Notes: generated by a model from the letters alone, not told the origin. DNA of 64,000 bases from Eledone cirrhosa (GCA_964016885.1 OZ024747.1:25234001-25298000); one strand, 5' to 3'; shown: positions 1,411 to 37,386, counted from the first letter of the stretch. A program made the numbers and translations.

Positions 1411-1419
1411 TCACCCTCT

Positions 1420-2415: not shown

Positions 2416-2499
2416 GATGAGTTAAGTAATACCATGTCGTCTGAAAATTCAAACAAACAAACAAACACACACACACATATGAACGGGCGAAGGCTCCCA

Positions 2500-7533: not shown

Positions 7534-7647
7534 TATATAATGTAAGCGATATATTTTTATATACTTCAAGTGCAAACGAAATATATACAAAAAATAGTCA
7601 ATGCAACGGCAAATTTAGTTCCTTTAAAAAAAAAATAATAGTATTTT

Positions 7648-10314: not shown

Positions 10315-10482
10315 AGCTACACTAACTGAAAGCTAAATATCAGACAAGATAAATATTATAAAGAAAAAGCAAAAAACCTTTAGGCGAGAGAGGGAACACT
10401 AATGAAAGTGAAAACTACTGGTGGAAGGTCCTCGGGAAAAGTGTAAATGGGACATTATACTCCAAGATCTTGTTTTCGTGTA

Positions 10483-10964
10483 CAGTGTACCTACGGCATT
10501 CGCGGTCCCTGTTATTGGCGGAAATTTCCTTAGACACCTAAGTAATAATTGTTTCTATTTTTGGCACAAGGCCAGCAATTATCCAGTGTATTACTGGTAC
10601 TTTATTTTATCGACCCCGTAAGGATGAAAGGCAAAGTTAACCTCGGCGGGATTTAAACTGAGACCATAATTGTTTAATAATATTCGCAGAATCGTAAATA
10701 TCTTCCGCGATTTTTTAATGGCTTTTTTTCGTGGCAATATATGTATTTTTTAACGCTAAATTATTAATAATATACCATATTTGCCGGCCTATTAGATCCC
10801 CCCCCCCCTTAGCATAAGACGTTCCCTCCTTTTTTTTAATTATATATTTACGTTATATTTTGAGGTTTATAGGCATTTTTATAGACCACGTCCAATATTC
10901 GCGGTTTTTCGCTCTTAGCGAGTGCTCTAGGAACGTAACCCCCGCGAATACGGGGAGGCAACTG
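10483..10964. mobile_element. Tc1/pogo (Tigger-like) MITE with nested SINE A
   Basis: TA|CAGT...attcgcgg and ccgcgaat...ACTG|TA ends; a related end lies reversed near 56370-56531. Confidence 0.6.
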
Positions 10965-11731
10965 TAATTGGAAAAAATTGTTTCGTTATATTTCTCTAAG
11001 TTGATATTACAAACAGTATTAAACAGTACTCCACATACTGATAATGGTGCGTCCTCCATCAGTTTCAACTATTTGTTCAATCAACTGAACGTCCAGCTCG
11101 TTAATTTACATATAAGTGATAGAGTATTCCAGCGTGTCACAATATGTGACAAGACTGGGATTTTGAATCAAATACAATCTACCTGACAGTTTTCGATTTA
11201 ACCAATTTCACCTACAAGACTTGAGTCGAGCCGAAGCTTATAGTAAAGAAACTTGTCCAAGATGCCAATCAGTATAATTGACTACAGACGCTGGTTATCT
11301 CGTTACTTTGCGAGAGGTTATTGAACTTGTAGTCAACTTTCGGTGATCAGCAAAGGTCATGAACTTTGCCTCACATTCAAAACAAGTGTTAAGCAAACAA
11401 GTGTTAAGAAAATAAGTGTTGAGGAAACAAAAACCGCAAAATACAATTGTGAAAGGCATTCCAGTCGTTATTGTCTCGTCTTTGTTCTTTTTTTTCTTTT
11501 CATTCATATGGTCTCAAGTAGGACGGCGTTGTAAAGAATATCGCTTCACAGCTACGACGTTTTGCATTCCACTCCACTGCACTCGAGCAGGTATTTTCCA
11601 CCGTAGCCTAAAGCAAGCAGCTCCTAATCTAAGACATCTACATTAATATAAATGGCGAATTGGTAGAGCATCATATCTCGCTCCGGTCAACTTTACGTTT
11701 TATCCTTTCGAGGTCGATAAATAAAATATCA

Positions 11732-11863
<132 letters not shown>

Positions 11864-12062
11864 GGTTTTAAATACCCCCCAAAACGACAACACTTCTACA
11901 GGTCCATACATACATCTTCATTAATAGCCTCCTCTAACACACATTTTTGGATTTCCAGAAATCTTATTGTGCAGTTGCCCAGGAAAACGAAGTCCACTCT
12001 ATTTCCATCTTCTCTAATTGGCATGAAGAGAAAGCTGCACTCTGAAAATTAATTCAAGCAGC

Positions 12063-12299
12063 ATGGCAGATACCAAAAGTTTAGACACCAATGGATTACT
12101 TCCAGAATTTCACAGCGAAGCAAAGAAGATGCGGGTCAGGAAACCTAAAATGGAAGAGCAAAAAACATGTAGTGATGGAGGACTGAAGGAAGATAAGGAA
12201 CAGATTCTGGAGAAGAAAAAAGAAAAGGGTTATAAAAGGAAATCACAAAGCCACCACCAACTCCCTTTGAGCCCCCAGAAAGATCTTGGAAACAAAATC
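12063..12299 (+). CDS. DNMT3: DNMT3 coding exon 1 (Lys/Glu-rich N-terminus)
   Basis: ATG in agcATGg context; MADTKSLD...DLGNKI then donor GTAAGT at 12300. Phase 0 fits the PWWP exon. No domain homology, so assigned by position. Confidence 0.75.
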
Positions 12300-15200: not shown

Positions 15201-17806
15201 TTAGAATGATTGGATGTAGTAGATACCTAGGGATATATGATGCATGAAATACAATTAGTAAAGTGGATGTTAACATATTTAATTTAACTGTTACTTTGCT
15301 TGTCTAGCTTTCCATAGCGCTTTTTCACTTTCAGTATTTGTCTATTTGTCTCTCCCTTTCTCAACCGCATATTACTGGTGGTTAGTGACTACATTTAGAA
15401 TATGTACTATATTATACCTGAAAATTATTGTTCACATGGTAACCTGTGGATTATTTGATTTTTGTTTCTGGTGTGGTGTATGTGTATGACTGTATTTCTA
15501 TGTACATGTGTATGAAAGGTGGTCAGTTGGTAGTATCTGTTCCTACTGGGTTCTGAGTTGAAATCTCATCTACCATAAAAACTGGGGCCGAATCATTAAC
15601 TCTTTTGTTAGCAAATTTCTAAGGAAATATAATGTAACCAATGAAAGATTTGGAGGGATTTAGTACTAACTTTCTCAATATTAAGTTGATGGCTGGAACA
15701 TAAAGATTCTTTACATAAGATTATAACGGAATGGGATGGTTTGATATTAAAAGGGTTAAAATTCCCAAGAAATCTCCTGTGAGATGAAAACTCATAGGAA
15801 GTAAGTTAAATCAGTGCAGATGTTAGCCTTATTACCAACAAGAACAAATGAGGAAACATCAGTTTATTTTCTTTGTATTTCCAGCTTCCACTTTCTAAAG
15901 TGACTCGTTTTGACCAGTACTTTTATTCAAACTATAAGAATCCTTCCAAAGTATTTAATGTGGCTATTAAGGAAGCTCTAGAGGTAGGTCCAACATGCTT
16001 TCTTTTATGTATTCTTATTGCTCTGTTATTGCTGCTTTTACTGTGTATATATGTCAGGGTTAGTGCTACTATAGGCCAACTAGGCAGCTGCCTTGGGTGC
16101 AAACCTTAGATATATTATTACTGAGCCTTAAAGGATCACATTTTTATACAAATGTATAATTAAATCAAACATATAATGTCCTGCTATTAATAAATAAATC
16201 ACTAATGTACCCTTGTTCTATAGTATTGTTGTGGAAATATCCAAAGCAGTGAAGTTTTGATGTGTCACATGATTTGGCATGGGCGAGTGTGGAAAATATA
16301 GCAACAGACTAAATGCTTAACACTTTAGCATTTAAACAGGCTGTATCTGGCCAGAATTCTCTCACCTCTTTCTTTTCAAACTGGCTATAACTAGCCTCTC
16401 ATACTAACGTTATGGTATGGTATTGTTCTCAAAATAAATAATATCAAAATCTCATAGATTCAATATTATGTGAGACAATTATGTGAAATAAAGACTTTAC
16501 TGTGAAAATACAATAGTAAATATAGAGTAATGTAAATGCTAAAGGGTTAAGCATATTTACTATTTATTTTTACTCTCTAAATTGAAAACTAAAAGGGTTG
16601 GCATAAGAAATGGTATCTGGCTGTAAAACATTGCCTCAAAAGGATACTCATCGTTATTATCACTTAATGTTTATTTTCCTTGCTTGCAAGAGTTGGATGA
16701 GTCATCACAGACAAAATCAGTCCTTAAATGGAGCTATTGTCCTCCTACATATCTCAATAAATATTCTAGTTTTGGGATGGTTACAACAACTTTTTTTTTT
16801 TTGCATAACTATTGGTTGAAATGATATTTTTTATTTTATTTATTTCAGGTTTGTGCAGAGCGTTGTGGTTTGAAACATGATGAACTTGACTCAGAGTATC
16901 TCTTTAGCTGGGCAAAGCAGCGTTTTATGGAAATAGTTGTTGATGGTAAAGATCCATTTCTACCTTTGAAAGGTTAGTTTTGTTTATTTTTTATTTGTTT
17001 ATTCTTTCATTGGTTTCAGTCATTAAACTACAGCCATGCTGAGATACCAGCTTGAAAGGAAATACTTAACCATATTGATTCCAGTATTGAACTAGTACTT
17101 TATTTAGCAATCTTAAAAGGATGAAATACAAAGTTGACCTTGGTGGGATTTGAACTTAATGCATAGAAATCAGAAATGAATACTGGAAAGCATTCTAACA
17201 ACCTTGGCAGTTTGCCACCTCACGGGATCCCATTTAACTTGTCTCAGCATAGAAAGGTGGACATAGAAGTGGTAATAGCAATATATATATATATATTTAT
17301 ATCATCATCATCATCATCGTTTAACATCTATTTTCCACACTAGCATGGGTTAGATGGGAATTGTCCCACTTGAGGCAAGATTGATCGGGTGACCGTGTCT
17401 TGCTCATATAGGACTGTATCTGGTAGGTTTTCTATGGCTGGATGCCCTTCCTAACACTAACTTATATATATATACATGGAGGCACATGGCTTAGTGGTTA
17501 GAGCATTGGCCTTGCAATCAAAAGGTTGTGAGTTCAATTCTCAGACTGGGTGATGTGTTGTTTCCTTGAGCAAGACACTTTATTTCACATTGCTCCAGTT
17601 TACTCAGCTGTAGAAATGAGATGATAGGGACTGGTGTCCCTATCATTCCACTGCAAAGTGGATGTGGAGGTGCCAAGGAAAAAAAGCACCCAGCACTCAC
17701 TGTAAATGAGGTTGGTGTTAGGAAGGGCATCCAGCTGTAGAAATCAAGCCAGAATCAGTTCCCGACCCACCCTTGCAAGCAGGGAAAAGCGGACGTAAAA
17801 TGATGA

Positions 17807-17878
<72 letters not shown>

Positions 17879-18215
17879 CATACACACACACATATATATA
17901 TTCATATCAGGAGTATGACAGCCTGTGTACACATTGATAAATGGCCTCCAGCCACAGAAATCTTGCCAAACAAAGGGTTGAGAGGACCTTCAGTTGTGTC
18001 AAAGACATGACAACCTCTCTTGTGCACTCAGTAGAACGTGAAACTGGACATAAGCAAGATGCAGATCCCTGACCTGTCTGGGAGATCACCAGCCCTGCTT
18101 CAGTACTGGCTTGGTCTATTTAGACCTGTCCAACTCTTACTAGTAGGAAAAGCAGACATTAAAACAACAACGACGATGATGATGATGGTATATACCTTAT
18201 AAATATATATATATG

Positions 18216-18253
<38 letters not shown>

Positions 18254-20616
18254 TACACACACACACACATCATCATCATCATCATCATCATTTTATGTCC
18301 GCTTTTCCCTGCTTGCAAGGGTGGGACGGGTCCTATTCAGCATAGCATCTCTCCACTTGTCACGGTCCTTCATCATCTTCGTGAGCTGCAGCGATCTGAA
18401 GTCTGCTCTCACCACCTTCGCCCATGTTTTGTCTCTTCCTCTACTGCGTCTTCCTTCTACTGGGATTTCTTGGCACTTCTTTACTCAGCGGTCATCCTCC
18501 ATGCGCATCACAACTTATCCCTCTTATACACAGTTTCTCTCTCAACTCATCTATGCTTGGTCGTTCATGCACATTGACATTGCACATCCAACAGAGCATC
18601 TCACACAGGCACCATATAACTGGCCTTTCGTATGCAGGGAGAAACCCTTCTTTGTCAGCAGAAGAAGCAGCTCCCTAAACTTCTTCCAACCCGTCCTTAT
18701 TCCAGATACTATGTCCTTGAACACCTCCCTCCCATGCTAATCTGATCACCTAGGTACCGGAAGCTATCAACCATTTCTATAGAACCCACCTGCATTTGAA
18801 AAATGTGTCTATCACTGTGACTTCTACTGCATACGTAGTGTTCCGTACGTGTTAGTTTGCCTGCTATCCCATTACATCTCTTGTGTACCCAAGATCTGCA
18901 TTGTGTACATTTTATAGAATTTATGCCAGTTCTTTTTCTACATATTGAACATGGCCATATTGAACTAGGTGTTGCTAGGAAATGGCGTACACAACACAAA
19001 TATATTTAACAAGCAGTGGTACCCGGCATTGCACTTGATAAGGTATTTTGGAACGTGGGCCGCCAACAGACCTAATCGTGGAAAAACTGCATGCCTGGAC
19101 AATATGTAAAGAAAATAAACCGAATACTCTGATGGCTGGCTAATCTTTAACATTTTCCTCGATGAAGCAGGAAAAATGCAGAATTTCACCTAATGCGGGC
19201 CCTAGGAGATCAAGAATGTGCCAAATATGCCTTGAAATTTCGGGAAAATGGGCTAGACGTAACACCTCAAAAAAGCCCTAAAAATCTGAAAAAAAAAATG
19301 AAGTTTTTCACCTAATGCGGGCTCTAGGCCATAAAAAAAGTTGGATTTTCTTTGCTCACGGTATGAAGAAGAGACTGACTAATACATAGTTACAATTTCA
19401 AAGAAATCGGTCTGACGTAACGCCTCAAACAACCCCTAAAAACCTGCAAAAACACGGTTTTTCACCTAATGCGGGACCTAGGGGGATCAAAAAGTTGAAT
19501 GTGCATAACACCCTGAAACATAAATAATACACATGTAAAGTTTGAAATAAGTCGGTTGGGTACTTCTCGAGTTTTAGGGATTCAAACTCACACAGACAGA
19601 CATCCTCAGGAAGTGATGTAATGCAGACAGTCAGACATACAGACAGATATTATAGGGGCTCGGCGTTATATGTATGTATCTATCTAAAAAGAGAAAGACT
19701 AAGAATTATAGAGAGAGATCACTAAATCGCCTAATGCGGTCCCTAGGGCATTGAAAATTTGAAATTTCTTTTGCTCAGAACACACCCTGAAACATAAGCA
19801 TTACATGTGTAAAGTTTGAAAACAGTCGGTTGGGTGCTTCTTGAGGTTTAGGGATTCAAACTCACACACACAGACAGACATCCTCAGTTTTATATATATA
19901 GATAACAGCTATATAAATACAAACAGACATTAGTATATATATATATATATATGAAAGACGACAGCTGTATAACAAAGTGCAGGGCAATAAAGATAGACGG
20001 TAGCCACAGAGTAGGCAGACCCAGAAAAACATGGGACGAGCTGATAAATTCCGACCTCACACGCTTACACCTCTCCAAGACAATGTCACTGGACCGAGAC
20101 CTTTGGCGGTACTCAGTAATAGAGAAGTCCCGCCTTACCTAAATACAAAGTAAAAACCTACTACAGTCAGTAGGCATCTCTATCAAAACACACCCCCGTC
20201 CAACCACCTCCACCCCATCCACACCGCCCCTTTCAATGTAAAGTTATGTTGGTCCCACAACATCCAGGCCGAAACAAATGAGATCGTGTAGGTGTCACGA
20301 CAAAAAAACACACAGTCCACGCTGTAAATGTGGCCGTGTAGGCAACCTCCCAGCCCCACACTGTAAATGTGGTTGGTGTTAGGAAGGGCATCCAGCTGTA
20401 GAAAACCCGCCAGACAGTCCACGCTGTAATGTGGCCGTGTAGGCAACACGGTAAAAACTCCCAGCCCCACACTGTAAATGTGGTTGGTGTTAGGAAGGGC
20501 ATCCGACTGTAGAAAACCCGCCAGACAGTCCTATGCGAGCAAGACAACCACTCTTGCCTCAAGTGGGAAAACCCCCGTCCAAACCCATGCAAGCGTGGAA
20601 CACCGGACGCTAAACC

Positions 20617-20647
<31 letters not shown>

Positions 20648-21677
20648 ATAAATAAATAAATATATATATATATAAATAAATAAATATATATAAATATATA
20701 TAAATATATATAAATATAGGCACATGGAGGCACATGGCTTAGTGGTTAGAGCATTGGCCTTGCAATCGAAAGGTTGTGAGTTCAATTCTCAGACTGGGTG
20801 ATGTGTTGTTTCCTTGAGCAAGACACTTTATTTCACATTGCTCCAGTTTACTCAGCTGTAGAAATGAGATGATAGGGACTGGGGTCCTTATCATTCCATT
20901 GTAAAGTGGACGTGTAGGTGCCACGGCAAAAAAGCACCCAGCACTCACTGTAAATGAGGTTGGTGTTAGGAAGGGCATCCAGCTGTAGAAATCAAGCCAG
21001 AATCAGTTCCTGTCCCACCCTTGCAAGCAGGGAAAAAGCGGACGTAAAATGAAATGATGATGATGATGATATATATATATAAATAAATAATAATGAGTTG
21101 ATGGGACTAGCATAGGTTTTATTGCTAGTACTAGTTGTACACATACATATATATCTGTATATATATATATATATATATATAAATATATATATATATAAAT
21201 ATATATATTTATTAAAATAACAGATTAAAGTTTAAGCAAAGAATCGCTGCTTTCACCCTTAACGGGATCTTCTGATCAGAAGATCCCGTTAAGAGTGAAA
21301 GCAGCGATTCTTTGCTTAAACTTTAATCTGTTATTTTAATAAATATTTGCTCTACGGTTCTTATATATTTGATATATATTTTCCTTATCGAACCCTCTTT
21401 GGATTTTAGTCTTCAATTTTATTATTATTACTATAAATATATATATATATATATATATAATGTTTATACACACTCACATATACATATAACCTATATTATA
21501 AGAGCACATATAACCTATATTATAATAAGAGCACTGTCTGTCTGTTCATCCCTACGTCGTCACACTTTATATAAAGAGGGGGACCGTCAAGTGTGAGGTA
21601 TGTACATAGATAGAGAAAAGGGGACGCCTTGAGTTTTCGAGGTGACAGAAAGCAGGAGAAAACATTGAACTCATCTA

Positions 21678-21751
<74 letters not shown>

Positions 21752-21876
21752 GTGTATGTGTGTGTGTGTGTTAGGAATGTATGAGCAAGGTATGGTTACC
21801 TGTCAAATCTCAGTACGTGACAATCAGTCTAACACATGCCAGCATGAAAAATTAGTGTAAAGCAGTGATGGTTATT

Positions 21877-21910
<34 letters not shown>

Positions 21911-22043
21911 AGTGTGTGTGTGTGCATATGTATGTATGTACACATACACATCATCATCATCATCATCATCATCGTTTAACGTCCATGTTCCACGCTTGCA
22001 TGGGTTTATATATATAAATATATATATATATATATGTATATAT

Positions 22044-22112
<69 letters not shown>

Positions 22113-22903
22113 ATATATATATATATATATATATATGTGTGCGTGTGTGTATATATATATATACTCCAAACCCATGCAAGCGTGGAAGATGGACGTTAAA
22201 CGATGATGATGATGATGATGATGATATATATATATATATATATATGTGTGTGTATATATATATACATATATATATCTGTATATATACATATATACATATA
22301 TATATACATATATATATAATATACATATATATATACATATATATATATATACATATATATATAATATACATATATATATACATGTATACACATATATATA
22401 TATATATACATACATACATACATACATACATTATGGAGGCACATGGCTTAGTTGTTAGAGCATTGGCCTTGCAACCGAAAGGTTGTGAGTTCAATTCTCA
22501 GACCGGGTGATGTGTTGTTTCCTTGAGCAAGACACTTTATTTCACATTGCTCCAGTTTACTCAGCTGTAGAAATGAGATGATAGGGACTGCGGTCCCTAT
22601 CATTCCACTGCAAAGTGGTCGTGGAGGTGCCACGGCAAAAAAGCACCCAGCACTCTGTAAATGAGGTTGGTGTTAGGAAGGGCATCCAGCTGTAGAAATC
22701 AAGCCAGAATCAGTTCCCGTCCCACCCTTGCAAGCAGGGAAAGTGGACGTAAAATGAAATGAAATGATATACATATATATACATATATATATATGTGCAA
22801 ACATTCGATTCGATTGCAAACGAATCGAATGTTTTTATTAATATTTGAAAAGCTCAGATTACATTTATTGTATTCAGCCATGTAGAACAAAGTTTCCTTT
22901 TTT

Positions 22904-22939
<36 letters not shown>

Positions 22940-23159
22940 GAACGATCGACTTTCATCAAATCGGACCGAGGTAACAATGTTTCCGTTGGTCTTTCCAATT
23001 GCTAATACTATTCTATCGGTCGCAACTCCAGGTAGAAGGAGCAACGCGAAATAAAGTGTCTTGCCCAAGGACATAACGCATCGCCTGGTCCAGGAATCGA
23101 ACTCACAACCTTACGATTGCGAATATATATATATATATATACATACATATCTATATATA

Positions 23160-23204
<45 letters not shown>

Positions 23205-23535
23205 ATTTCATTTTACGTCCGCTTTTTCCCTGCTTGCAAGGGTGGGACGGGAACTGATTTTGGCTTGATTTCTACAGCTGGATGCCCTTCCTAACACCAA
23301 TCTCATTTACAGTGAATGCTGAGTGCTTTTTTGCCGTGGCACCTCCACGACCACTTTGCAGTGGAATGATAGGGACTGGGGTCCCTATCATCTCATTTCT
23401 ACAGCTGAGTAAACTGGAGCAATGTGAAATAAAGTGTCTTGCTCAAGGAAACAACACATCACCCGGTCTGAGAATTGAACTCACAACCTTTCGATTGCAA
23501 GGCCAATGCTCTAACCACTAAGCCATGTGCCTCCT

Positions 23536-23569
<34 letters not shown>

Positions 23570-26500
23570 GTATGTACATACATACATACATACATATATA
23601 TATATACATATACATACACATATTTATGTAAAAGGTAAACAGAAATAACAACACATTTGGTACAGTATATGGAAGGAATATATTAGGTTAACGTTTAATA
23701 TAACAGCAAGAGAGTCTAAATGTTTTGGACGCTAGTGTTTCATCAGAAGAAAGAATGAGAAACAAGATCGATCGAGGCAACGGGCGAGTTGGAATTGGAA
23801 AATATGTCTTTAGATAAAAATAATTCATGTTGACATCTCTTGGACTGATAGTCATATACTGCGATATGACAGGTCAGGTAACCATGCCTTGCTCATACAT
23901 TTCTAACACCAATAACTTTACACTGTGCACTGGTTGTGTTTTATCATTGCAGGTAGCTACTTTTTATTGTCGCACCAGTTGTTTTACAATCTGACATACA
24001 TATATCATGAACATTTTCCTTATAATATCAACACTTATTTATTTTTGTTTCTAAATTTTTTTTCTTTCAGGAGATCCTTATCCACAATTTGTTAAACGAA
24101 AGTTGCAGCCAATATTCAAATTAGGTGAAAATGTTGAGAAAGAACCAGAGAAAGTATCATCTCCTGTTAATGCTATTTTTGAAAACAGTAAGATGTAGTT
24201 TCCCTTCTATGTAATAATTCTTTCTAACATAGGCACAAGGCCAGCAATTTAGGGGAAGGGGAAAGCCGATTGTATCAACCTCAGTATTTATCTGGTGCTT
24301 TCTTTTATCAAGCCCCGAAGGATGAACGGCAAAGTTGACCTCCGTGGTATTTGAACTCAGAACATAGAAAATGCTGCAAAGCATTTTGACTGACGCTCCA
24401 TTGATACTGCGAATCTATTGCTCCCCCTTCTATCTGATAAAGTGCAGCTGTGTGATAATGACGGTAGTGGTGATGATAGTGCTTTTTTGATAGTGGTGGT
24501 GCAGTTTATTGTTTAACTCCAGATTATAGATGGGTCAATTCAAAAGGTCAATTAAACTTTTGGGTCAAAACCTGACATGAAAATATATAAAATAATACAA
24601 TAAAATACAACTTATTTTTATATAGGTTTCTTATTTATATATAGTATTTACTGTTTATTTGGATAGATATGGCTGCTATTTCTCTGCAGGCCAGTTGTTA
24701 GTTGCCCTAACTTCTTGACAGGTACTTTATTTTATTGATACTGGAAGGATGAACAGCAAAGTTGACCATGGCGAGATTTGAACTCAGAATGTAACACAAA
24801 GCATTAGTCTGGCACTCTTATATTTATAACGGTTTCTGATTAAAGCATTAGTCTGACACTCTTATATTTATAACGGTTTCTGATTAAAGCATTAGTCTGA
24901 CACTCTTATATTTATAACGGTTTCTGATTTAGGCACAAGGCCATCAATTTTAGATTTGAACTCAGAATGTAAAGGGTCGTAGCCATATGCCACAAAGTAT
25001 GTTGTCTGATGCTCCACTGATTCTGCCAAACCGCATAATGATAATAAAATAGTTGGAAATTTACTGAAACATTTTGGTTTTTACTTTCAACAGATGATCT
25101 CATAAATAAACTGAAAAGTAATCAAGTGAAAATTCAAGGTAAGTCAATGATTTGTTAATAAATATTTATTATTATCATTATTATTCATATTCATTTTCCC
25201 AGTGATGATCTTATTAACAATAGATCATTTAATTAACTCCCTATCAAGTTATGTTACCTCAATTAGATAATACTTTCTGCAGGATATTTGCTGTTCTGAA
25301 AAGTGTTTTGTTTGAGTTTTAAATGTTTATCTTTTTTTAGTTTTTGTTATAACCTTTTGTTACACACAAAAACCCACACATTATTGTCCAGTGCTGTCTC
25401 TATGTTTGTTTAATGTCAGCTCTGTGTGGATAATAAAGAAACGAGTATTATTGTCATTGTTGTTGTTGGTCATTATTCTCCTGAATGTAACACATAGTGA
25501 AAGTATTCTTGTGTTTCTTATAGAAATCTGTATTGGTTGCCAGTCATCAGATGAAGTGATAGTGGCACAACATCCCTTGTTTGAAGGTGGACTCTGTGAA
25601 CAGTGCAAGGTAATCATTATTTTCATCATCATCATCCTCATCATCCTCATCATCATCATCATTTAATGTCCATTTTCCATGTTAGCATGGGTTAGGCGTG
25701 TTGTTCCATTGTGAGACAAGCCAGGTCAGATGACCATGTCTTGCTCATACAGAACTGATTTTAGCTTGTTTTCTATGGCTGGATTCCCTTCCTAATGCCA
25801 ACCACTTTACAGTGTGGACTGGGCACTTTTTGTCGTGATACCTACACAACCACTTTACAGTGTGGATTGAGGAATTGGGTTGGAGAAGTGCATGGGGATT
25901 GAGGAGGTAAAATCTAGGGGCATGGGTGAGGAGTGGGGTGTTAGAATGTGGGATGTGTACGGAGGGGAAGGTGGTGCATTCTAGATGCATGCTTCAACCT
26001 GTGCACATGGGAAGGTGGGCCTTTTGTATTACTGCATAATGCCAGAGATCACAGTCCTGTGTCATCACCTTTCAGAGGTACAACTGTGAAAAGTGAGCTT
26101 TTATCACCTTATTCCAAGTCTTCCTAGATCTTCCTACTCCATAGCTTCCATCAACTTTGAGTACTCTGCATATTTTTATACAGCTTATCCTCCATACACA
26201 CCACATTTCATAACACCACAATCTCTTCTCCTGTACACTGCATCTAACTCCTCTTATGCCTAATTTCTTTGTCAGTTCACTGTTACTTTGTTTTATTTAT
26301 ATATTACTATTATACATCCATTGGAGCTTGGAAGCTTTATTTCTTTCCAATCTTCAAAGGTTCTCTGCACACGGCATCCTGGTCTCACTACCATGCCACA
26401 TTTTTGTTTATACATAAGCATTATACAATCTGCCTTTCATTTTGAGGGAAAAACCTTTTGTAGTTAGCAGTGGTAGTAGCTCCCTGAACTTTCCTCTTCG

Positions 26501-29500
26501 GTGACGCTCTCATTAACTTTTCCAGGTTTCACCTGAAAAGGAAAATCAGGGTGGAGAGGGAAGTGCTGCCTTCCAGACAGTTAATTGAAAAAGTTGGTTG
26601 AGCGAGGCAAGAACGGTCCGTGTGAATGGGTTTGCTCTGAATGTGCGCTTGTAGTATTGTAGGAGGAAAACTGGGAGAGGGCACTTCCCCTAGCGGTCTG
26701 GGTGACCGTAGCTTTTGTAGGTTTTCCACACGAGTAACCCTCTGTAGTCTTCCCCCTATTGAGGATTTTTTTCCTGTGTTTCGATTTTTTTTACATCCTT
26801 TGTTTTTGTTTTATTGTTTTGTTTTTACATGCAGAAACGCCTATTTCTACTGTCCTGTGCTGTCCTTAATCATCTTATGCTTTGTGTCAACCCTTGTTGT
26901 TAATAAAGAAAACATTATTATTATTATTACTACTACTAGTATTATTACTATTATTTCTATTATTATCTTTATTAATATTTAAATATTTTTCAGGAGAATG
27001 TTTTGGAAACTATTTTTGCCCTTGATATTGACAATACACATGTAAGTTAACATATTTATCACTTGCTGTAAAAGCTGCCAGCCAAAATTTGAGGTGAATT
27101 TTGTTGTTTTTATTGTATAACCACAGGCCAGGTTTGGTCAAGTAGACAAACTGGTGATCATAATCAGTGTCTTCAGTGATATTGTCCTTTTGGCTATCAT
27201 CATCATCACCATCATTGTCCCTACTATTCTCATTATCAACATCATCATCATCATCATCATCATCAACATTTCTAGCTGTAGCCACATTGGTCATCTCAAG
27301 CTGTGACCACATTGGACAACTCTATTTCTAGTTGTAGCCACATTGGACAACTATTTCTAGCTGTGGCCACATCGCTCATATCTATTTCTAGCTGTAGCCA
27401 CAGTGGTCATCTCAAGCTGTGGCCACATTAGTCAACTCTATTTCTAGCTGTTGCAGAAATTTGGATCATATACCATAAAGTATCCCATCCAAACCTTTAA
27501 CAATTCTGCCAGTCCAGTGCCCTTGGACTGGTATTTTATTTAGAAATCCTGAAAGAATTATAGGCAAAGTTGACTTTGACAAGATTTAAACTCAGAGCAC
27601 AGAGAGATGGTCCAAATGATGAGGCATTTGATCAAGCACTTTATTTGCTGCTTCAAAAACAGTATAAAAATTGTATTTTGATGTTGTACTTTATATTAAT
27701 ACATTAATTTACTTAAAATTTCAGATTTGTGAAACAATCTTATTTCCTATACTTTCAGGCTTTCTGTACTATATGTAGCCAAAGTGGCCAGCTGTGTATA
27801 TGCAGTATACCAGAATGTAACAGGTAACATCCTTTGAAGAGTATTTAATTCTATAAAGAAGATATTTGTCTATGAAAATGTTATTTTCACTATTCTACTT
27901 CCCTTTGTGCCTACAACAATCTCTATAATAAGGATTGTGCTGAATTTTTCATGTCTGTTACACAGATGCTACAAAATCCATTCTCTGACTTAGTGCCAGT
28001 TTTATTTTAGAACCTATATTGTAATAATTCTTCTAAAATGTATTCTTGTCAATGGAGTCATTCCCCCTATAGTCCTGAAGTGAGACTATTGAGCACTCAA
28101 ACAGGTGAGAGGTAGTTGTCTGCATCTCAGATTCTGTCGAGTTCATATGGGGGTTTGTCATGTCTTTGACACAGCTGAAGGGCCCTCCCAACCCTTGTTT
28201 GGCAAGATTTCTATTGCCGAATGGCCAACCACTTTACAGCATGTACTGACTGCATTTATTGTGTAGATCACCAACTCTGTTCAGTTGTGTCCTTGACACA
28301 ACTGAAGGGACCTCCCAACCCTTTGTTTAGCCCTCCACAGTTGAATGTCCTTCCCATCAGTAACTGCTTCACAGGAGAGGGAGGGGGCAGCTGTTTTAAA
28401 TGGTGGGGGTTGAAGTAGTGATGTTGAAGATAACGGTTGGGGAGTGCTAGTGGAGGTGGGGGTGTGGTGGGGTGGGCAATCACCCTGGAACTAATGTTTT
28501 TTACAAGTCAATGTATTTATGTATATACATCAGTGCTAAATGTGCCATATTGTTATTAATCAATGTTTTACTATCTATCTGTAATATTATTGTAACTTTC
28601 TGTTCTATTGTAGAGTCTACTGTATTAACTGTGTTCACAGTTGGGTCGGCCGCGAAGCATGGAATCAGGTAATTTAATACTTTCTGGATACCTTTATAAG
28701 ATTATAGTTTATTGGTCTCGTAACCTCATCTTTGCAGATGAAATATCATGTGTTTTAAGGTTGTTTTTCCTGGTAAAACAGGTTCCATAACACACTTTCC
28801 AAACCTCATAAATGGACTGAAACTCCTTTGTTTTGAGTAAGTTCATCATTGTGAGTTTTGATGAAAGAGGTGGAGAGTTCTTTGGGCTATACACTACCTA
28901 TGTGTTGTTATACTCATCGTGGGGTCCTTCATGAAGCAGTTTTATAGCCAGAAACCCTTCCTGGCACTATCATTTGTATCAGCTCTTATGACATGGAGAT
29001 GAGGTGAACCTATTCTACAATGGACCTGTGTATTATAAGAGGCAACTAATTGGGTTTGCATTAGGAAGGGCATCCATCTATAAAACAATCCCTCTAAAAA
29101 GAATCCCTAATAAGTATGAAACCTATCATGATGCCTGAAAGGCTAATTCCTGCTTTAGCAGGGAAAATGGGGTTAAAACATTTGGTGGTGTTATATTTAC
29201 ATTTACACTACAGTTTCATGTTTTTTTTACTGTTTAGTGAAGAAGGAACAGTAGTGCCTATGACACTTTTCAAGGCCTCCAAGACTGGTGAGTGAGAAGA
29301 AGGAAGGTATCCTCAAGCTGGAGACCTGGCCCAAATGCTTGCAACAGTAGATTCTGTTAAAAGGCAAACGAGGGCCAGTTGGTGCTGTTAATCTGGGTAC
29401 CAATCTTTATCAGCTGTTTTTGATATCTTAAAATATCTCACACTTGGTTAGAGTTTTGTAATTTTAAAATTCATCTTCAAATAGTTTTTGACTTTTAACA

Positions 29501-32500
29501 CCTTGTAATGATTTAGCAGAAAATATCTAAAACCTAGGTTTGTCAATTCAAATGGACAGATCATTTTGAAAATTTGTAGTAAACCAAAGTAAAGACTTTA
29601 TTTTTAATGTGACACAATCATCAGGCTGTTTTATACTTTGCAATAATGTGGTATAGGACGTTAAGAGTTAACTGATGCTGTATTAGAGTAAAGACATAAT
29701 TTTTAATGTGATGCAGACATGGAACTGTTTTATACTTTTGAAGATTACTTTGCTAATTTGGTTTTATGCAATATAGGATGATAAGACCTAAAATTAATTT
29801 TTTTTTTGTAATCTTAGCAAATGCATCAATTCTTTTTATCCTTTCTAAAATGTTAAAGACTAACAGAATATTATTATTTTTATCAACAGATTCTCTCACA
29901 GAACCCCTGGTCTTGTTTCCTTTGTCGAACCCCAAGTAAAAAACGTTCCTGTGGATATCTTCAAGCAAAACGCAACTGGTCCCTTAACATTATGCACATG
30001 TTCAACAGTCATCAGAAATTATCAGTTTGTTATTCTTTATTTCATTCCAGTTCTTTTAGTTAACCCTTTTAATAATAATAATGAAATTATTGTGTAAAGT
30101 GCTCAGGTGCACTACAACTCATCAAAGGTGTATGTATAGGACATAGAATAGTACACAAATGTCAGGGAAGTGAATAGTGTATGAGTCATGGTATACATGT
30201 GTGTATGTGTATGGAGGGGGAACATTAGCTGTAGTATTGGCGGATCTCGGGAAGCATGGAGGCCTTAAAGGATGCAGTGTCTCGACAGCTAACAACTGAT
30301 GCAGGTAATTTGTTCCATGTTTCAGCAACTCTGAGTGTGAAAAAATGTTTCCGAAAGTCATGGGAACTGTGCTGTTTTCTTACTTTGTGGGCATGTCCAC
30401 GTGTGTTAGACACATGGAAATCAAAAAGGTACTCAGGGTTGTTGTTGGCAAGATGGTTAACAATTTTTTGGGTGTTTACCAAGTCAGTTGCCAGGCGTCA
30501 GAGCTTCAATGTATCCATGCCCAGGGAAGCAAGGCGCTCAGAGTATGGTAGATGCCTGATGGAGGGTATCCGCTTGGTTGCACGTCTCTGAACAGTTTCC
30601 AGGCGGTCAATGTTCTGAGCAAGATAGGGGTTCCAGACTGGTGATGCAAATTCTAAGTGTGGCCGCACCATAGCCATGTACAGCCTTAAATAGATATCTG
30701 GAGAGCGGCTAACTGGCTAAGGTCTTGCTGAGTGATGCTAAGACACCCTCGGCTCTCTTGACAATTTTAGAGACGTGCTTCGTCCAACGCAAATCGCTGC
30801 TGACCGTAATGCCCAGGTCACGTTCACAAGAAGACTTCTTGATATTAGTACTGTGGAGGGAGTATGTGGTTTTTACTCCCAAAATGCATGGTGGTGCACT
30901 TGTCCACAGCTAGCTTGAGTTGCCAGTCTGAGATCCATTGTTGCATTGTGTCCAGGTCAGACTGCAAGCAAGATCTATAGTGTTCAGGATCTGTCCTTTT
31001 TATCTCAAGGTACAGCTTGATGTCATCTGCATACTTTAGTACCGTGGCATTCTTTAAGTTGGCATCTATGTCATTAATATATGCCACAAACAATGTTAAG
31101 ATATTTCTAATTAAAGACATTGATCATGATTTTCACATAATCTTTAAAATAATTAAAAAGAGTGATTTAATAATATTACGAACCTTCACATTATATAGTT
31201 TGTGTTGGGAACAAAGATTTTTACAAAATTATGATGAGAGATTTGTAGATTTATAAACATTTTATAAAAGACTGTCATGAATCATAGAACCAGGGGTAGT
31301 TTCAGGCAGTTTTGAAGTAAAAGGGTTAAATTAGCCTTCTCCCATAATAACAGTCTTGGCTGGGTTGGTATCAATAGAATTCATATATATTTTTTATAGT
31401 TTAAAAGTTAAACTTTTAGGTTCCATTTCATTTCATTGATAATTTGAAAACTTTATTTCTTGTGGGTTCTTTTACTTTCAGGAGCCAAATCTGTCTTACC
31501 TCACTAATGCTTCTGAACAACCTCCAATCCAAGTGTTGTCCTTGTTTGATGGTATTGGAACAGGTAATAGATACATATATATTATGCACATACATATGCA
31601 TAGACACACACACACGCACACACACACACACACACACACGCTGGTGCCATGGCATAAAGCACCCAGTCCACCCTGTAAAAGTGGTAGTCCCAGTGTCATG
31701 ATAAAATGCTCTCCATCACTGAAAACCCCATGAAACACCATATGAAGTGTAACCTCGTAGGAGACCAGCTAAATCTACATATATGTGACCTGTAATAACA
31801 GCAACACAATAGGAGTGCAGTCCCTATCACTGAAACATCCAAGAACCCTTCCCCATGAAATGTAACCTCATTGCATTTCATTGCTGAACCTAATAGGTGT
31901 GAGTTCTAACAATAACAACACTCTACCTGGATAATAACTAGAAAAAAATATCTTTAGATTGTCTCTTGTCGAATGTTAAACTGTTTTTGTTGTTACTGTT
32001 GACCTAATTGCTTTTGTTTTTCAGGTAAAGTTGCTCTTGAACAGCTTGGATTAACCATCAAAGAGTATTTCTCTAGTGAAATTGATGCTGATGCTCTGAT
32101 TGTGAAACGGTTTACCTACGGTCAGAGTATCACAGAAATTGGAGACATCACTGAACTTACAGAAGCCAAGGTATCTCACAGACATTACTTGCTCAACTTT
32201 CTAAATACTGTTATGGAATATATAAGACTTGGTCAATTTGACCTGTCTAATCGCATGCCAATATAGAAAATGGACATAAAAGTTGTTGGTTTTTTGTTTA
32301 AGCCATGTAGTTTTTTTTAAATTTATTTTTGTTTGGGTTTTGCAGTGTTTCTGTCCCAAATTTTCTTCCTGATGACACTAATGTTAATAAATCTGTTAGT
32401 GAAAATGTTTATATTTATCTAAAAACCTGTCATCATAAAGACCTCTTGTAAAGTTATGTTCAGACACCAGCTTAATAATGAGAAAGTTAGTCATATTACT

Positions 32501-35500
32501 AAATCCCTCTAAATACTTGATTATTTTTTAAATGATTTGAAGATCACCATTGGCAGTTTGATATTTGAAAGCTTTACACTAAAGAAAACTTTCATAAATA
32601 CTTCATTTGTTCAAGCAACAATATAAATTTCTCTTTCTACTTCTCTGATTTCAGCTGTTAGAAATGTGTCCCTTGGATCTGGTCATAGGTGGTTCTCCTT
32701 GTAATGATTTGTCCCTGGTTAATCCTGCACGCAAAGGATTCTCTGAAGGTATATTTTATGTATCCTACATAAGAAGTAGGAGGGTGCGTAACTTAATGAT
32801 TAATGATTAGGGTGTTTGGCTCGCAACCACAAGTTCATGAGTTTGATTCCTGGTTATGTGTTGTGTCCTTAAGCAAGACACTTTATTTTGCATCACTTCA
32901 GTCCATTCAGCTGGCAAAAATGAGTTGTACCTTGTCATACACTGTTATGCTGAATCTTCCTGAGAACTATGTTAATAGTGCAGCTTTGTGTCAACCGTGT
33001 CATACTGATTCTCCTAAGAATTAGGCTAAAAGTATACATATCTGTGGAATGCTTAGCCACTTACACGTTAATTTCACAAACAGGTTGTTCCATTGATATA
33101 ATCAACTGGGACACTCATTAGAACTGATGGAGGTCCAATGCATAAGAAATAAGAGGCCAGTGTGCTGCTGTTTAGTCCCAGACCATCACCATCATCATCA
33201 TCACTGGGACACTGCACCAATTGCCTCCATCTCTGGCGGTCAAAGGCGAGTGATTGGGTTGTGGCAAAGTTCTTCCCTATCTACCCTGTCTTTTCTTTCC
33301 CCCCACACTGTTCCTTGGAGATTGTCTTAGAGAGTCCAACACTGATCAATCACACCTATGATCAAAGACATTTCATAATGATCACTGGCCCATATAAGTG
33401 TTTGTGTAAACATTACATAAACGTGAATGTATGAGTCTGTATTGAGCGTGTGTATTTATGCAAGATTGCACTCAAAGGACTGTATTTTTCTGTGTTCATG
33501 TGTGTATATATGAAAGTGTGTGACATAATGATTAGAGTTGGATTCACAATTATAAGGTTGTGAATTTGATCCACAAACCGATCAGTGTGTTGTGTTCTTG
33601 AGCAAGAAACATATTTCATGTTGCTCCAGTCCACTCAGCTGGTTAAAATGAGTTATGATACTGGTGTCAAGCTGCATTAGTTTTTTTCCTTTCTCTTGCA
33701 CAACACTGGTGTCCCGGAGAAAGGAAACTAGCATGCATGGGCAACTGCTTGGGAGAAGAACTTTCCTTGTACAAACACATGGTCAGTCATGACGATGTAT
33801 AGGGTCTCTCTCTATAGATGATGATACATACAGATACACACTGATCATGATGATGATACACACAAAAACTGATATAACTAATTATTTCCAATAAAATATT
33901 CTCTTTTCAGAAGGTACAGGTATATTGTTTTTTGAGTTTTGTCGGATTCTGTCCATTGTCCAGAGGTTGTGCAAAGATCGACATGTTTTTTGGCTTTATG
34001 AAAATGTCGCTGCTATGAAAACCAGCTACAAAAACATAATTTCCAGATTCCTAGGTGTAAGTAGTTCATAATTCTATTATTTATTTTTAAAATGATTTTA
34101 CTGGTTTCGTTATAACGGAATTTCACTGTATTCAAAAATATTTGAAAACCATATATAGTGTATTTCTTTGAAAATATGGTAACAAAATATTTCCATTCTA
34201 TTAATTTTCTTGAATGTTATTATAAGCTAAGAAATATGGATGATTAGATAGCATTTATAGTTGTGTAGTTTGGTCCAACTGTTGCTAGCAGGGAAAGTGG
34301 ATGTTAAACAATGATGATGATAGTTTGGTTAAAAATTGTGTTCACTTAACTTCTTCCTGTATTTCCAGTGTAAACCTGCCCTCTGGGATGCAAGGTTTTT
34401 CTCAGCACAACATAGACCTCGATATTTCTGGGGTAATTTACCAACTATATACAGGTATGGTTAACATTCCTTTGACATTTCAATAACTGTGTAATACGTA
34501 TGTGTCCCTGTCCATATGTATGTATGTGATCCCACTTCAGGGGTATGTATGTATGTAAGTGTGTGATCCCACTTCAGGGTGAAAAAAATTGTTTGCTTAA
34601 ACTTTTAAGCTGTTAACAGTAATAATAATAATATTTGTATGTGTACACACGCACACCGTATCCTTGCATGTCATAAATGACTAAAAATGTTAGTGACAGG
34701 AAGTTAATCCAGCAATAAAACATTGCCTCCAAAAGTCATGTTCAACTCGTACTAGTATAGAAAAGTTGATGCAAAAAATTATGATAAGGATGTTTTCAAA
34801 AAATCAAAGGGATATATAGTCTTGATGATAAGGATGATAATGAGATTATACTTGTAAGGTGGTTGGCAGTTGTTGTAAGGTCATCTTACTGGCTTTACAA
34901 CAGTTGTTGTAGGATCACTTTACTGACCTTATAGCAGTTGTAAGATAGCCTTACTGACTTTGTAGCAATTGTTATGAGGTCACTTTAAAACAGTTGGTCA
35001 CCTTACTGGCTGTACAGCAGTTGTTGTGAGGTCATCTTTCTGGCATTTGTTGTAAGGTCAGTAAAATTACAAGAATTATTGCACAACTGGACTGAATTCC
35101 TGGCAGTCTTTATATCATTATCATCATCAACACTGCCGTTTTATGTCCACACTAATACAGGTTGGGCAGGTTCTGTTCTGAGACTGTGGCAAGTCAGATG
35201 ACCACAACTTGAGTATATGTTCTATCTTGGCATTATTTCTACTGTTAGATGCCCTTCCCAACACCAGCTACTATATTTAAGGATTGCCAGTGTTGATTGG
35301 TCTCTCAAAAACCTTTACAACCCTTTCACAACCATATTTCTAATTAATTTGAAGGGATTTTCTAAGATGGTGTTTGCAAAATGTTCTTATATCAAATTAT
35401 GTTGGACAATTTTAATTGGGTGGGTTTGTTTCATAGAATCAGAAGCAGTTTTGTGCAGGTTGGGTTAATTAGTTATTTGTATCTCATCTAATATTATTTC

Positions 35501-37322
35501 ATTCATGAAATCAACCAGTTTTTTTCCCCCCAGCTCACAACCAACAACTGAAGATGACTCTCTATATTTAGATAAAGTTCTCTCACCAAACTGTAACAGA
35601 AAGGCTAAAGTAAGTTGTGTTTTCTATAACTACGTAACAGGAATGAATGTGTTAAGGTATATATGTAGTGATTACAAGTGCAATCCCCACAGTGCACCTT
35701 CTACTATATTCTTAGGTTTTTCTGTGAGTGGAATTTGGTAAACAGAAATTCTTTGTATGTGTGTGTATGTATTTGCTGCAACACTGCTGGTTAAAACAAA
35801 TGTGTCAAAAAAGTAACTGAGCATCTTGGGAAATATAGATTAAAATAACACTTGGGTGAGGTGGAGTTGATTGATTAACCCTATAACATTTTCATGACTC
35901 TATATTTACTACTATATTTTCATGGTAAAGTCTTTACCTCACATAATTATCTCATATAATATCGAATCTATGAGATTTTGATATTATTTATTTTGAGAAC
36001 CATACCTTAACATTAGTATGAGTGACCAGTTACAGCCAGTTTGAACAGAAAGAGGTGAAAAAATTCTGACCAGATACAGCCAGTTTAAATGCTAAAGGGT
36101 TAAAGCTCTTCACAGCAGTTCTCCAGCATGGCTACAATCCATTGTTTGATATAAGTAAAAGAAGAATAGACTATATATTATTCCAGTGATATGAAATATC
36201 AATGTATTTTGCCATCAGGTGAAACAATTACGGACAGTGACTACACGAAGTAATTCACTACGACAAGGAAAACATGAAAATATTTTACCAGTTGAAATGG
36301 ATGGCGAGGAAGATGCTATTTGGATCACAGAATTGGAAAAGTAACTCTACTCTGCTTTTACATATTTTAAGTGCTCAACTCTTAACATCCTGTACAGCAT
36401 GAAATTAGATTAATAAAACATTCTTGAAAAGTATAAAGTAGCACTATAACTGCATGCCATTAAAATGTAGTTTCTATTGTAAATGTTTCCAATGATATGT
36501 CCAGTAGTAAAGATACTATAAACGTTTGAATTAACAAACCCATTTTTAGATATTTTCTGCTAAATCACTACAGGATGTTAAAAGTTGATACAATGTGTAA
36601 TTTATATGCCTGACAAATCAGAAAGCCGTTTAGCTGTAGGCTTACCCTTCAAGCTTTTCATATATCTGCCATCTTTCAAGCTTTACATATAGTTAAAACT
36701 CATCCCTTTTTTTTTCATAGTTTCTTGACCTTTTTTGTCCCTTGCCCAACTTTGTTGTAGCTTTTCTTTTTTCCTTCTTCAAGCAAGAAAAACAACAACA
36801 GTTGACTCTTTTGAGGTTATGACCCTCTTTTCAAGGAAATGTAATGCGATGGTGACGATTGCAGGCTGAAAACTATAGCTGTTAATGTACTTTACTCTAA
36901 TTTTCACTTCCGTATTGCTACCTTCCATTGTACTGGCTTTCCTACGCTCCAATATTTCACAATGTTTATGCGATATAAACTATACTACTTTCTGTCTAAT
37001 ATTGATAGAGAAGGTCAGCATGTATAATTTCTATTTCTTCTCTATAAATTTGAAGCTCCATATTTAGATGCTTTATCCCCCCCTATCTCTTTAAAATGAT
37101 AAACATTCACATTTCCTCTTCTTACAAATTCTATTTTGTTTCAGAATATTTGGTTTTCCAACACATTACACTGATGTACGGAATCTAAACCACAGCCGTC
37201 GCCAACGGCTCCTCGGAAGAGCCTGGAGTGTTCCAGTAATTAAGTTCCTGTTATCTCCATTGACCAAATTATTTCATACTTCCAGTTCATCAATGCATCA
37301 TACTTCCAGTTCATCAATGTAA
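12063..37322 (+). CDS. DNMT3: De novo DNA (cytosine-5) methyltransferase 3, complete spliced CDS (19 coding exons, 2088 nt, 695 aa)
   Basis: Exons joined at GT-AG with consistent phases: 12063-12299, 13636-13782, 15885-15983, 16849-16972, 24071-24187, 25094-25138, 25524-25609, 26994-27041, 27759-27823, 28614-28668, 29890-30024, 31482-31563, 32025-32170, 32655-32748, 33911-34056, 34369-34454, 35534-35609, 36219-36340, 37145-37322. Domains: PWWP ([16 protein letters not shown]), ADD ([27 protein letters not shown]), MTase motifs I ([10 protein letters not shown]), IV (GGSPCNDLS), VI (ENV), VIII ([11 protein letters not shown]), TRD (TVTTRSNS), IX/X ([20 protein letters not shown]). No internal stops. 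Confidence 0.95.
13636..13782 (+). CDS. DNMT3: DNMT3 exon 2, PWWP core
   Basis: ctcag|[22 protein letters not shown]...[12 protein letters not shown]|gtaatt. Confidence 0.93.
13860..15130. repeat. 48-bp compound minisatellite in DNMT3 intron 2
   Basis: Unit tatccaatcacctctgtctgtctagccatctgtgtctgtctgtctgtc, more than 20 copies with variable (TCTG)n. Confidence 0.95.
15885..15983 (+). CDS. DNMT3: DNMT3 exon 3, PWWP C-terminal part
   Basis: ttccag|[13 protein letters not shown]...AIKEALE|gtaggt. Confidence 0.9.
16321..16546. mobile_element. piggyBac-like TTAA MITE
   Basis: TTAA|cactttagcattta ... taaatgctaaaggg|TTAA; other copies near 54497-54718 and 35877-36099. Confidence 0.75.
16849..16972 (+). 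CDS. DNMT3: DNMT3 exon 4, PWWP helical end
   Basis: tttcag|[10 protein letters not shown]...LFSWAKQRF...LPLK|gttagt, phase 1. Confidence 0.88.
17478..17810 (+). mobile_element. SINE family B (tRNA head, conserved central domain, RTE-like tail)
   Basis: A-box tggcttagtgg, B-box gagttcaattc, tail gcggacgtaaaa(tga)n. Near-identical copies at 20726-21070(+), 22435-22768(+), 23207-23534(-), 57262-57533(-). Confidence 0.88.
18270..18960 (-). mobile_element. RTE/RTEX LINE 3' fragment
   Basis: [20 protein letters not shown] (PHD-like insert), [11 protein letters not shown], (CAT)n tail. Confidence 0.8.
19010..19902 (-). mobile_element. Non-autonomous Helitron with internal repeats
   Basis: Minus-strand 5' end A|TCTATATATATAAAA; 3' end GC-rich gcaatgccgggtacc then CTTG|T; cctaatgcggg.cctagg recurs internally. 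Confidence 0.75.
19950..20648 (+). mobile_element. RTE LINE 3' end (ORF C-terminus, repeat-containing 3' UTR, (GAT)n tail)
   Basis: [20 protein letters not shown]...DRDLWR; tail cccatgcaagcgtggaa...(gat)n also seen at 21950, 22164, 43705, 45625. Confidence 0.75.
21205..21346. repeat. Zero-spacer palindrome with 71-bp arms
   Basis: Centre tctga|tcaga at 21275/21276; one mismatch. Confidence 0.93.
24071..24187 (+). CDS. DNMT3: DNMT3 exon 5, linker
   Basis: tttcag|[38 protein letters not shown]|gtaaga; phases 1/1 fit the neighbouring exons. Confidence 0.75.
24798..24930. repeat. 44-bp tandem repeat, 3 copies
   Basis: aaagcattagtctg at 24798, 24842, 24886. Confidence 0.9.
25094..25138 (+). CDS. 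DNMT3: DNMT3 exon 6, pre-ADD helix
   Basis: caacag|[14 protein letters not shown]|gtaagt; phases 1/1. Confidence 0.8.
25524..25609 (+). CDS. DNMT3: DNMT3 exon 7, ADD GATA-like finger
   Basis: ttatag|[29 protein letters not shown]|gtaatc. Confidence 0.93.
26520..26935 (+). mobile_element. Tx1/L1-like LINE 3' end
   Basis: [16 protein letters not shown]-terminal remnant, T-rich 3' UTR, AATAAA and (TTA)n tail. Confidence 0.45.
26994..27041 (+). CDS. DNMT3: DNMT3 exon 8, ADD acidic H3K4-binding loop
   Basis: tttcag|[16 protein letters not shown]|gtaagt; D-x-D aligns to human D529/D531. Confidence 0.88.
27759..27823 (+). CDS. DNMT3: DNMT3 exon 9, ADD PHD-like finger
   Basis: tttcag|[21 protein letters not shown]|gtaaca. 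Confidence 0.92.
28614..28668 (+). CDS. DNMT3: DNMT3 exon 10, ADD
   Basis: ttgtag|[18 protein letters not shown]|gtaatt. Confidence 0.92.
29890..30024 (+). CDS. DNMT3: DNMT3 exon 11, ADD end
   Basis: caacag|[12 protein letters not shown]...[17 protein letters not shown]|gtttgt (weaker donor). Confidence 0.88.
30072..31085 (-). mobile_element. CR1-clade LINE, 5'-truncated (RT domain to 3' end)
   Basis: YINDI...[28 protein letters not shown]...[17 protein letters not shown], (TTA)n tail; inserted inside a TTAA MITE (about 30060-31329). Confidence 0.88.
31482..31563 (+). CDS. DNMT3: DNMT3 exon 12, MTase motif I
   Basis: tttcag|EPNLSY...[13 protein letters not shown]|gtaata. Confidence 0.94.
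32025..32170 (+). CDS. DNMT3: DNMT3 exon 13, MTase motifs II-III
   Basis: tttcag|KVALEQLGL...YFSSEID...[11 protein letters not shown]|gtatct. Confidence 0.94.
32655..32748 (+). CDS. DNMT3: DNMT3 exon 14, catalytic PC motif IV
   Basis: tttcag|[31 protein letters not shown]|gtatat; catalytic Cys codon 32700-32702. Confidence 0.95.
33911..34056 (+). CDS. DNMT3: DNMT3 exon 15, motif VI (ENV) and FF interface
   Basis: tttcag|[14 protein letters not shown]...[10 protein letters not shown]...ISRFLG|gtaagt; alternative acceptor at 33914. Confidence 0.94.
34369..34454 (+). CDS. DNMT3: DNMT3 exon 16, motif VIII
   Basis: ttccag|[28 protein letters not shown]|gtatgg. Confidence 0.95.
35534..35609 (+). 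CDS. DNMT3: DNMT3 exon 17
   Basis: ccccag|[25 protein letters not shown]|gtaagt. Confidence 0.9.
36219..36340 (+). CDS. DNMT3: DNMT3 exon 18, target-recognition loop
   Basis: catcag|[18 protein letters not shown]...DAIWITELE|gtaact. Confidence 0.95.
37145..37322 (+). CDS. DNMT3: DNMT3 exon 19, motifs IX-X and stop
   Basis: tttcag|[39 protein letters not shown]...SSM* (TAA 37320-37322). Confidence 0.95.
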
Positions 37323-37350
37323 CTCATCTATGTTGAAATAACACAAATTT

Positions 37351-37386
37351 AATAAATAATAGCAAACACATCTCAATGAAAATAAA
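37351..37386 (+). terminator. Candidate DNMT3 polyadenylation signals
   Basis: AATAAA at 37351 and 37381, shortly after the stop codon. Confidence 0.4.

Follow-up and report, generated by a model that had tools for sequence, protein, structure and literature searches.

In human DNMT3A, the filaments of the R882H mutant consist of alternating RD and FF interfaces, as observed by cryo-EM (PMC13535186). The sensitivity of DNMT3A to R882H, relative to DNMT3B, is partly traced to the contact between R676 and E820′; both R676K and M674T/R676K result in fewer R882H polymers, and R676K weakens the R676–E820′ contact (Lu et al., PMC11006857). In the case of DNMT3B, whose numbering is offset by 59 from that of DNMT3A (from R823/R882), R670Q at the R729 site reduces the oligomer to dimers or monomers, and the FF interface is bridged by Y676, the counterpart of Y735 (PMC9307851). 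Positive charge near position 882 has been shown by others to guard against macro-oligomers.

The DNMT3 of Octopus bimaculoides (obDNMT3) contains His882, with arginine at the S878 and A884 sites, and this trio together with its test is already known (Garcia et al. 2025, bioRxiv 10.1101/2025.09.24.678339). In that preprint, R882 is not conserved among invertebrate DNMT3 proteins, and only a handful of sequences, that of O. bimaculoides among them, have histidine there. Both obDNMT3 and DNMT3A R882H/S878R/A884R silence a cell reporter better than R882H; the gain persists without endogenous DNMT3A, and the rescue is partial. According to a deep scan in the same work, loss of the arginine, rather than gain of the histidine, matters. 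R882K is tolerated, L883R, a nearby positive charge, partly rescues, R676K/R882H alone exhibits little reporter activity, and DNMT3B R823H is near-normal. An AlphaFold2 overlay is also given there. Natural enzymes that tolerate the residue of a human cancer hotspot point to suppressor mechanisms, which Garcia et al. have already exploited. Hence S878R/A884R, put forward in an earlier note on this DNA as suppressors of human R882H, do rescue, but only partially, and the idea is not new.

Garcia et al. was the sole match in the literature on R882H and octopus. A search on R882, invertebrate DNMT3 and protostome gave no match, with most subscription journals outside its scope, and neither Y735 nor R729 nor the string "protostom" appears in the main text of Garcia et al. 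Sequence logos in their Fig. S1 may already show that 884 is basic. The proposed protostome-wide remodelling of the interfaces and a cuttlefish Cys882, described below, remain as leads that may be new, as may the octopod enzyme's likely freedom from R882H-type polymers.

The DNMT3 gene and its His882 codon

The window is a 64,000-nucleotide stretch of Eledone cirrhosa DNA (GCA_964016885.1 OZ024747.1:25234001-25298000), and it contains an intact, spliced octopod DNMT3 gene (Table 1). The exons were modelled by tblastn with O. bimaculoides DNMT3 and by inspection of the splice sites; the modelled start is that of the first modelled exon, the true 5′ end not being located. All introns are canonical, with 18 GT donors and 18 AG acceptors. 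The model comprises 698 codons with zero internal stops, and 596 of 687 residues (87%) are identical to O. bimaculoides DNMT3 (P0002, i.e., A0A0L8HNR6, the octopus entry in the methods of Garcia et al.).

Table 1. Features of the DNMT3 gene in the window; residue sites are numbered as in human DNMT3A.
Feature	Position	Strand	Details
DNMT3 gene	12054..37322	+	19 modelled coding exons, PWWP-ADD-C5 methyltransferase; tblastn, O. bimaculoides DNMT3 query
PWWP exon	13636..13782	+	PF00855 match (E 2e-9) that passes the curated cut-off
ADD (GATA/PHD zinc finger) exons	25524-25609, 26994-27041, 27759-27823, 28614-28668, 29890-30024	+	Aligned to P0002 and human DNMT3A/B
Methyltransferase exons 1-4 of 8	31482-31563, 32025-32170, 32655-32748, 33911-34056	+	
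Methyltransferase exons 5-8 of 8	34369-34454, 35534-35609, 36219-36340, 37145-37322	+	
Arg at M674 site, Thr at R676 site	32108..32116	+	Alpha2 helix, RD interface
Catalytic Cys, C710 equivalent	32700..32702	+	TGT
FF-interface helix	33922..33942	+	Ile at R729 (33922-33924), Phe732 kept, Cys at Y735 (TGT 33940-33942)
Ser at E820 site	35583..35585	+	Adjoining a 2-residue insertion
Last coding exon (RD interface)	37145..37322	+	Stop TAA 37320-37322
Arg at S878 site	37179..37181	+	CGG
His at R882 site	37191..37193	+	CAC
Arg at A884 site and conserved R885	37197..37202	+	CGT (37197) and CGC (37200)

The protein follows the domain order of the DNMT3 family, i.e., PWWP, ADD and C-terminal methyltransferase, although two single ADD exons searched alone against Pfam gave no match. 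All six catalytic and cofactor residues (F640, E664, C710, E756, R790, and R792) are present, as are the RD-interface residues D876, R885, H873, and W860, and the product is predicted to be a de novo CpG methyltransferase of the DNMT3 family. The two DNMT3 exons that were searched in the Eledone genome itself (G000) have one match each; this search, in which only the best candidates were scored, revealed no second copy with Arg882, a result short of proof.

In the last exon, translation of 37149-37241 reproduces the reading of the earlier note. A gapless alignment with human DNMT3A 866-909 (9lq1_A) places the histidine on R882, and the codons directly yield the retained equivalents of D876 (GAT at 37173) and R885 and the arginines at 878 and 884. 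Among 177,635 PDB sequences, the best three matches of this exon are R882H mutant chains (6w89, 8te1, and 11nz; E 1e-15 to 4e-15). A 1554-nt spliced contig from a different sample (X4, library type not on record) spans 37145-37369 with 0 differences and runs on into the preceding exon, with the junction 36340/37145 observed. Its pieces lie on four methyltransferase exons, separated by gaps of 94 and 86+76 nt, i.e., the lengths of the intervening exons. The check in raw reads was less informative: the X6 RAD reads list no difference at the codon, but their depth of 3 is too shallow to count alone. X1 yields 0 contigs, X5 only touches the 3′ flank with a short piece, coverage of the codon by X7 and X8 is scant or absent, the contig comparison consists mostly of repeat noise, and no RNA run is listed as a match.

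An assembly error, a private variant or a pseudogene was rejected as the source of His882, with a likelihood that is practically negligible. The low raw-read depth would leave room for such an artefact, against which stand the identical X4 contig from another sample, the intact frame, and the same residue in the proteins of O. bimaculoides, O. sinensis, and Argonauta. Histidine at the R882 site is thus confirmed, and the natural, wild-type His882 DNMT3 proposed earlier is supported by the alignment, the X4 contig and the octopod relatives.

Several further features were observed in the window. At position 33951, the X2 and X4 contigs read A against G in the window, a synonymous difference at the third base of Leu738. 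A 24-bp exact tandem duplication (1.9 copies, 37274-37319) lengthens the C-terminal tail in the last exon and is also present in the X4 contig. A Helitron-like remnant occupies 3947-6159 (+) in several frames, with a PIF1 helicase (PF05970, E 9e-42) and a Pif1 2B domain. Broken intronic frames at 30228-30909 (-) resemble by eye the terminal portion of a LINE reverse transcriptase, the tested piece having no Pfam match, and an exon of a protein-tyrosine phosphatase gene lies at 62556-62750 (-; PF00102, E 2e-5).

Residues 882, 884, and 878 across animals

The alignment of metazoan DNMT3 proteins called for by the earlier note contained 235 proteins (the window model and database matches), six isoform rows having been left out beforehand; 13 without coverage of the site were dropped, leaving 222 rows. 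Group labels were taken from the source names, and 36 rows without a label stay outside the group counts. The 94 non-protostome rows comprise 88 vertebrates, 4 invertebrate deuterostomes, 1 cnidarian, and 1 sponge, and 89 of them have Arg882. None of the 92 protostome rows, to which the window belongs, has it, and 12 residue types occur there at the site. The rows are redundant and vertebrate-heavy. Lysine is found at 882 in two protostome rows (two wasps, adjoining a deletion) and histidine in seven. Meanwhile, Lys/Arg884 occurs in 74/92 protostome rows versus 0/94 non-protostome rows. The split at 882 is clean for named rows only, and some of the non-Arg representatives below may be non-protostome.

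A less redundant set of 150 representatives includes 131 that span the site, 122 of them without an indel. In these 122, position 882 displays 15 residue types, whereas R885 is conserved in 120 and D876 in 113; at 882 and 884 alike, 44 lack a basic residue. Free variation of 882 among invertebrates had been named in the earlier note as counting against its proposal, and the wide variation found here goes half of that way.

All four octopod rows combine His882 with Arg878 and Arg884. Arg878 is also found in P0004, a cuttlefish-type DNMT3 whose 177 of 177 residues are identical to the truncated Acanthosepion pharaonis model (P0047), and all 13 non-cephalopod molluscs have Gly878. In P0004, the two arginines accompany Cys882. 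In this single sequence, the R836 site, which reads the CpG, is likewise cysteine. None of the database matches used is named as a protein from Nautilus, squid or vampire squid.

Independent His882 without Arg878 was also observed in Mya arenaria (P0061), Mercenaria (P0163), and Frankliniella (P0206); Mya and Mercenaria have Gly878, and basic 884 is absent in Mercenaria, which has Gly884, and in the thrips (Frankliniella) paralogue. Mya is a clam with a transmissible leukaemia-like cancer, and no link to His882 is implied. Two vertebrate gene models contain His882, P0175 (Phyllobates, a DNMT3A-like paralogue) and P0211 (Coryphaenoides), each a single model.

In a quick tree of 91 rows (SH-aLRT support only, midpoint root), the window protein clusters with the octopods Octopus and Argonauta (support 99) and lies inside a mollusc set, away from the vertebrate DNMT3A clade; the supports for this placement among octopods within molluscs are 99 and 96. 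P0004 branches as the sister of the octopods (SH-aLRT 99). On this tree, His882 needs five changes (octopods, Mya, Mercenaria, the thrips paralogue, and a frog paralogue), and basic 882 needs three. Co-evolution of 882 and 884 is not claimed: the Fisher p of 4e-5 over the 122 representatives is pseudo-replicated, and the tree gives 3 independent pairs, which are not significant (p 1). Likewise, the association of His882 with Arg878 or Arg884 comprises 4 independent pairs and is not significant.

The simplest history inferred from these sequences, with an order of events that rests on one decapodiform sequence and the midpoint-rooted quick tree, is that Arg882 was lost and basic 884 gained early in protostomes, Arg878 arose in the coleoid stem, and His882 followed in octopods. 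The arginines likely preceded the histidine, because the cuttlefish-type sequence combines the same Arg878 and Arg884 with Cys882, so that they probably permit His882 rather than compensate for it. A recent Arg-to-His change in the octopod lineage with subsequent compensatory S878R and A884R would produce the co-occurrence of the three residues in the four octopod rows. Such a history is very improbable and largely refuted, given Arg882 in none of the 92 protostome rows, the widespread Lys/Arg884, the Arg878 common to octopods and the Cys882 sequence, and independent pairs in which histidine is never accompanied by new charge at 884. Of the compensating charges suggested earlier, the charges themselves are present, but their later origin in response to Arg-to-His is unsupported.

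RD and FF interfaces and the probable tolerance of His882

At the RD contact sites of vertebrate DNMT3A, the window protein possesses Arg674, Thr676, and Ser820, and it contains neither the M674/R676/E820/H821 nor the R729/Y735 contacts. With Thr676 and Ser820 in place, a DNMT3A-type R676–E820 contact would be missing. In the FF interface, Ile729 and Cys735 are accompanied by the retained F732, F772, E733, R736, and R771. Where a residue is aligned at 729, arginine is present in 3/90 protostome versus 86/92 non-protostome rows. Y735C and R729W are among the fittest clonal-haematopoiesis variants (PMC9410004, citing Watson et al.), and Y735C is also named in a figure legend of PMC13364711. Cysteine at 735 is, however, common in protostomes, being present in 18 of the 92 rows, so the match to Y735C is not special to octopods.

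The preferred reading, to which a probability of about 0.6 is assigned, is that prior charge at 878 and 884, together with the missing R676–E820 contact, keeps the octopod enzyme active and unpolymerised. Arg878 and Arg884, likely already in place, would supply the positive charge given by Arg882 in human DNMT3A, and the enzyme would still pair through D876–R885. Without the R676–E820 contact, it is likely DNMT3B-like, a background in which the same change to histidine is nearly neutral. Judged from these residues, octopod DNMT3 likely does not form the inactive polymers of the R882H type. Since Arg882 is missing from molluscs, arthropods, and worms in any case, His882 probably does no harm in the octopod enzyme. 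Against the preferred reading, the rescue of human DNMT3A by S878R/A884R is partial only, charge at 884 is not obligatory, as the 44 of 122 representatives demonstrate, and Mya and Mercenaria combine His882 with Gly878. The non-significant 882/884 pattern on the tree and the little reporter activity of R676K/R882H alone also speak against it.

Alternatively, position 882 may be relaxed in protostomes, with a weak FF interface leaving mostly RD dimers unable to chain and the charges at 878 and 884 being incidental. The need of R882H filaments for RD and FF interfaces in alternation (PMC13535186), the R670Q and Y676 data on DNMT3B (PMC9307851), the scarcity of Arg729 together with Ile729 and Cys735 in the window, and the representatives charged at neither 882 nor 884 agree with such relaxation. 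However, five FF residues are kept in the window, the joint loss of R729 and R882 falls on roughly one tree branch and is hence not independent, and the S878R/A884R pair does rescue human DNMT3A; relaxation is accordingly considered rather unlikely. A broader and tentative proposal, with the odds against it, is that protostome DNMT3 was remodelled on one ancestral branch, by loss of Arg882 and Arg729 and gain of Lys/Arg884, and would work without the tetramer-to-filament assembly of DNMT3A. If true, the wild-type octopod enzyme would contain two residues known as human clonal-haematopoiesis drivers, His882 and Cys735, and that of cuttlefish would contain Cys882. Furthermore, polymerisation of R882H/C would be suppressed by Thr676/Ser820 and Ile729/Cys735, in addition to the S878R/A884R pair already published. 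The protostome pattern suggests that sensitivity at R882 is a property of DNMT3A interfaces, not of DNMT3 enzymes generally.

In contrast to the preferred reading of a tolerated histidine, His882 might make the octopod enzyme R882H-like, with lower activity and a +1 purine preference that shape a sparse methylome. In human DNMT3A, R882H lowers DNA contact and shifts the preference to CG(G/A), with a purine at +1 (PMC7210271), and in O. bimaculoides methylation affects fewer than 10% of CpGs (PMC9476566). Octopus methylation is, on the other hand, sparse and gene-body centred as in other invertebrates (PMC9476566), and CpG depletion is flat over the +1 bases. The observed/expected ratio by +1 base is 0.96-1.07 in the window and 0.88-1.06 in the gene body, and thus displays no flank signature; this is a weak, low-power test with no comparator, the GpC control for CGG being confounded and ignored. 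An R882H-like methylome imprint is therefore regarded as improbable. The overall CpG observed/expected ratio falls from 0.74 upstream (1-12000) to 0.33 within the DNMT3 gene, and to 0.33-0.34 over the gene plus the sequence beyond it (12054-64000), as expected for gene-body methylation.

Comparison with known systems

Compared with obDNMT3 (A0A0L8HNR6 / XP_052827281.1), the window encodes the same orthologue, identical over 866-909 including His882, Arg878, and Arg884. Differences are found elsewhere: histidine replaces asparagine at the D845 site, and the C-terminal tail is longer, owing to the 24-bp duplication.

In the case of human DNMT3A R882H (6w89, 8te1, and 11nz), the window protein shares His882, H873, D876, N879, R885, W860, and R836. 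The human mutant represents a somatic loss of a conserved arginine in the DNMT3A background, whereas the octopod lineage is without Arg882, and the octopod enzyme differs from DNMT3A by Arg878, Ser883, Arg884, Ile859, Arg674, Thr676, Ser820, Ile729, and Cys735. The cuttlefish-type Cys882 sequence is, correspondingly, a natural counterpart of R882C.

Human DNMT3B tolerates histidine at the hotspot (R823H) and, like the octopod enzyme, is without the DNMT3A-type R676–E820 pair. Both have lysine at the S828 site, one of five DNMT3B-type rescue changes. However, wild-type DNMT3B utilizes Arg823 with lysine at the 676 and 836 sites, whereas the octopod enzyme possesses Thr676 and Arg836.
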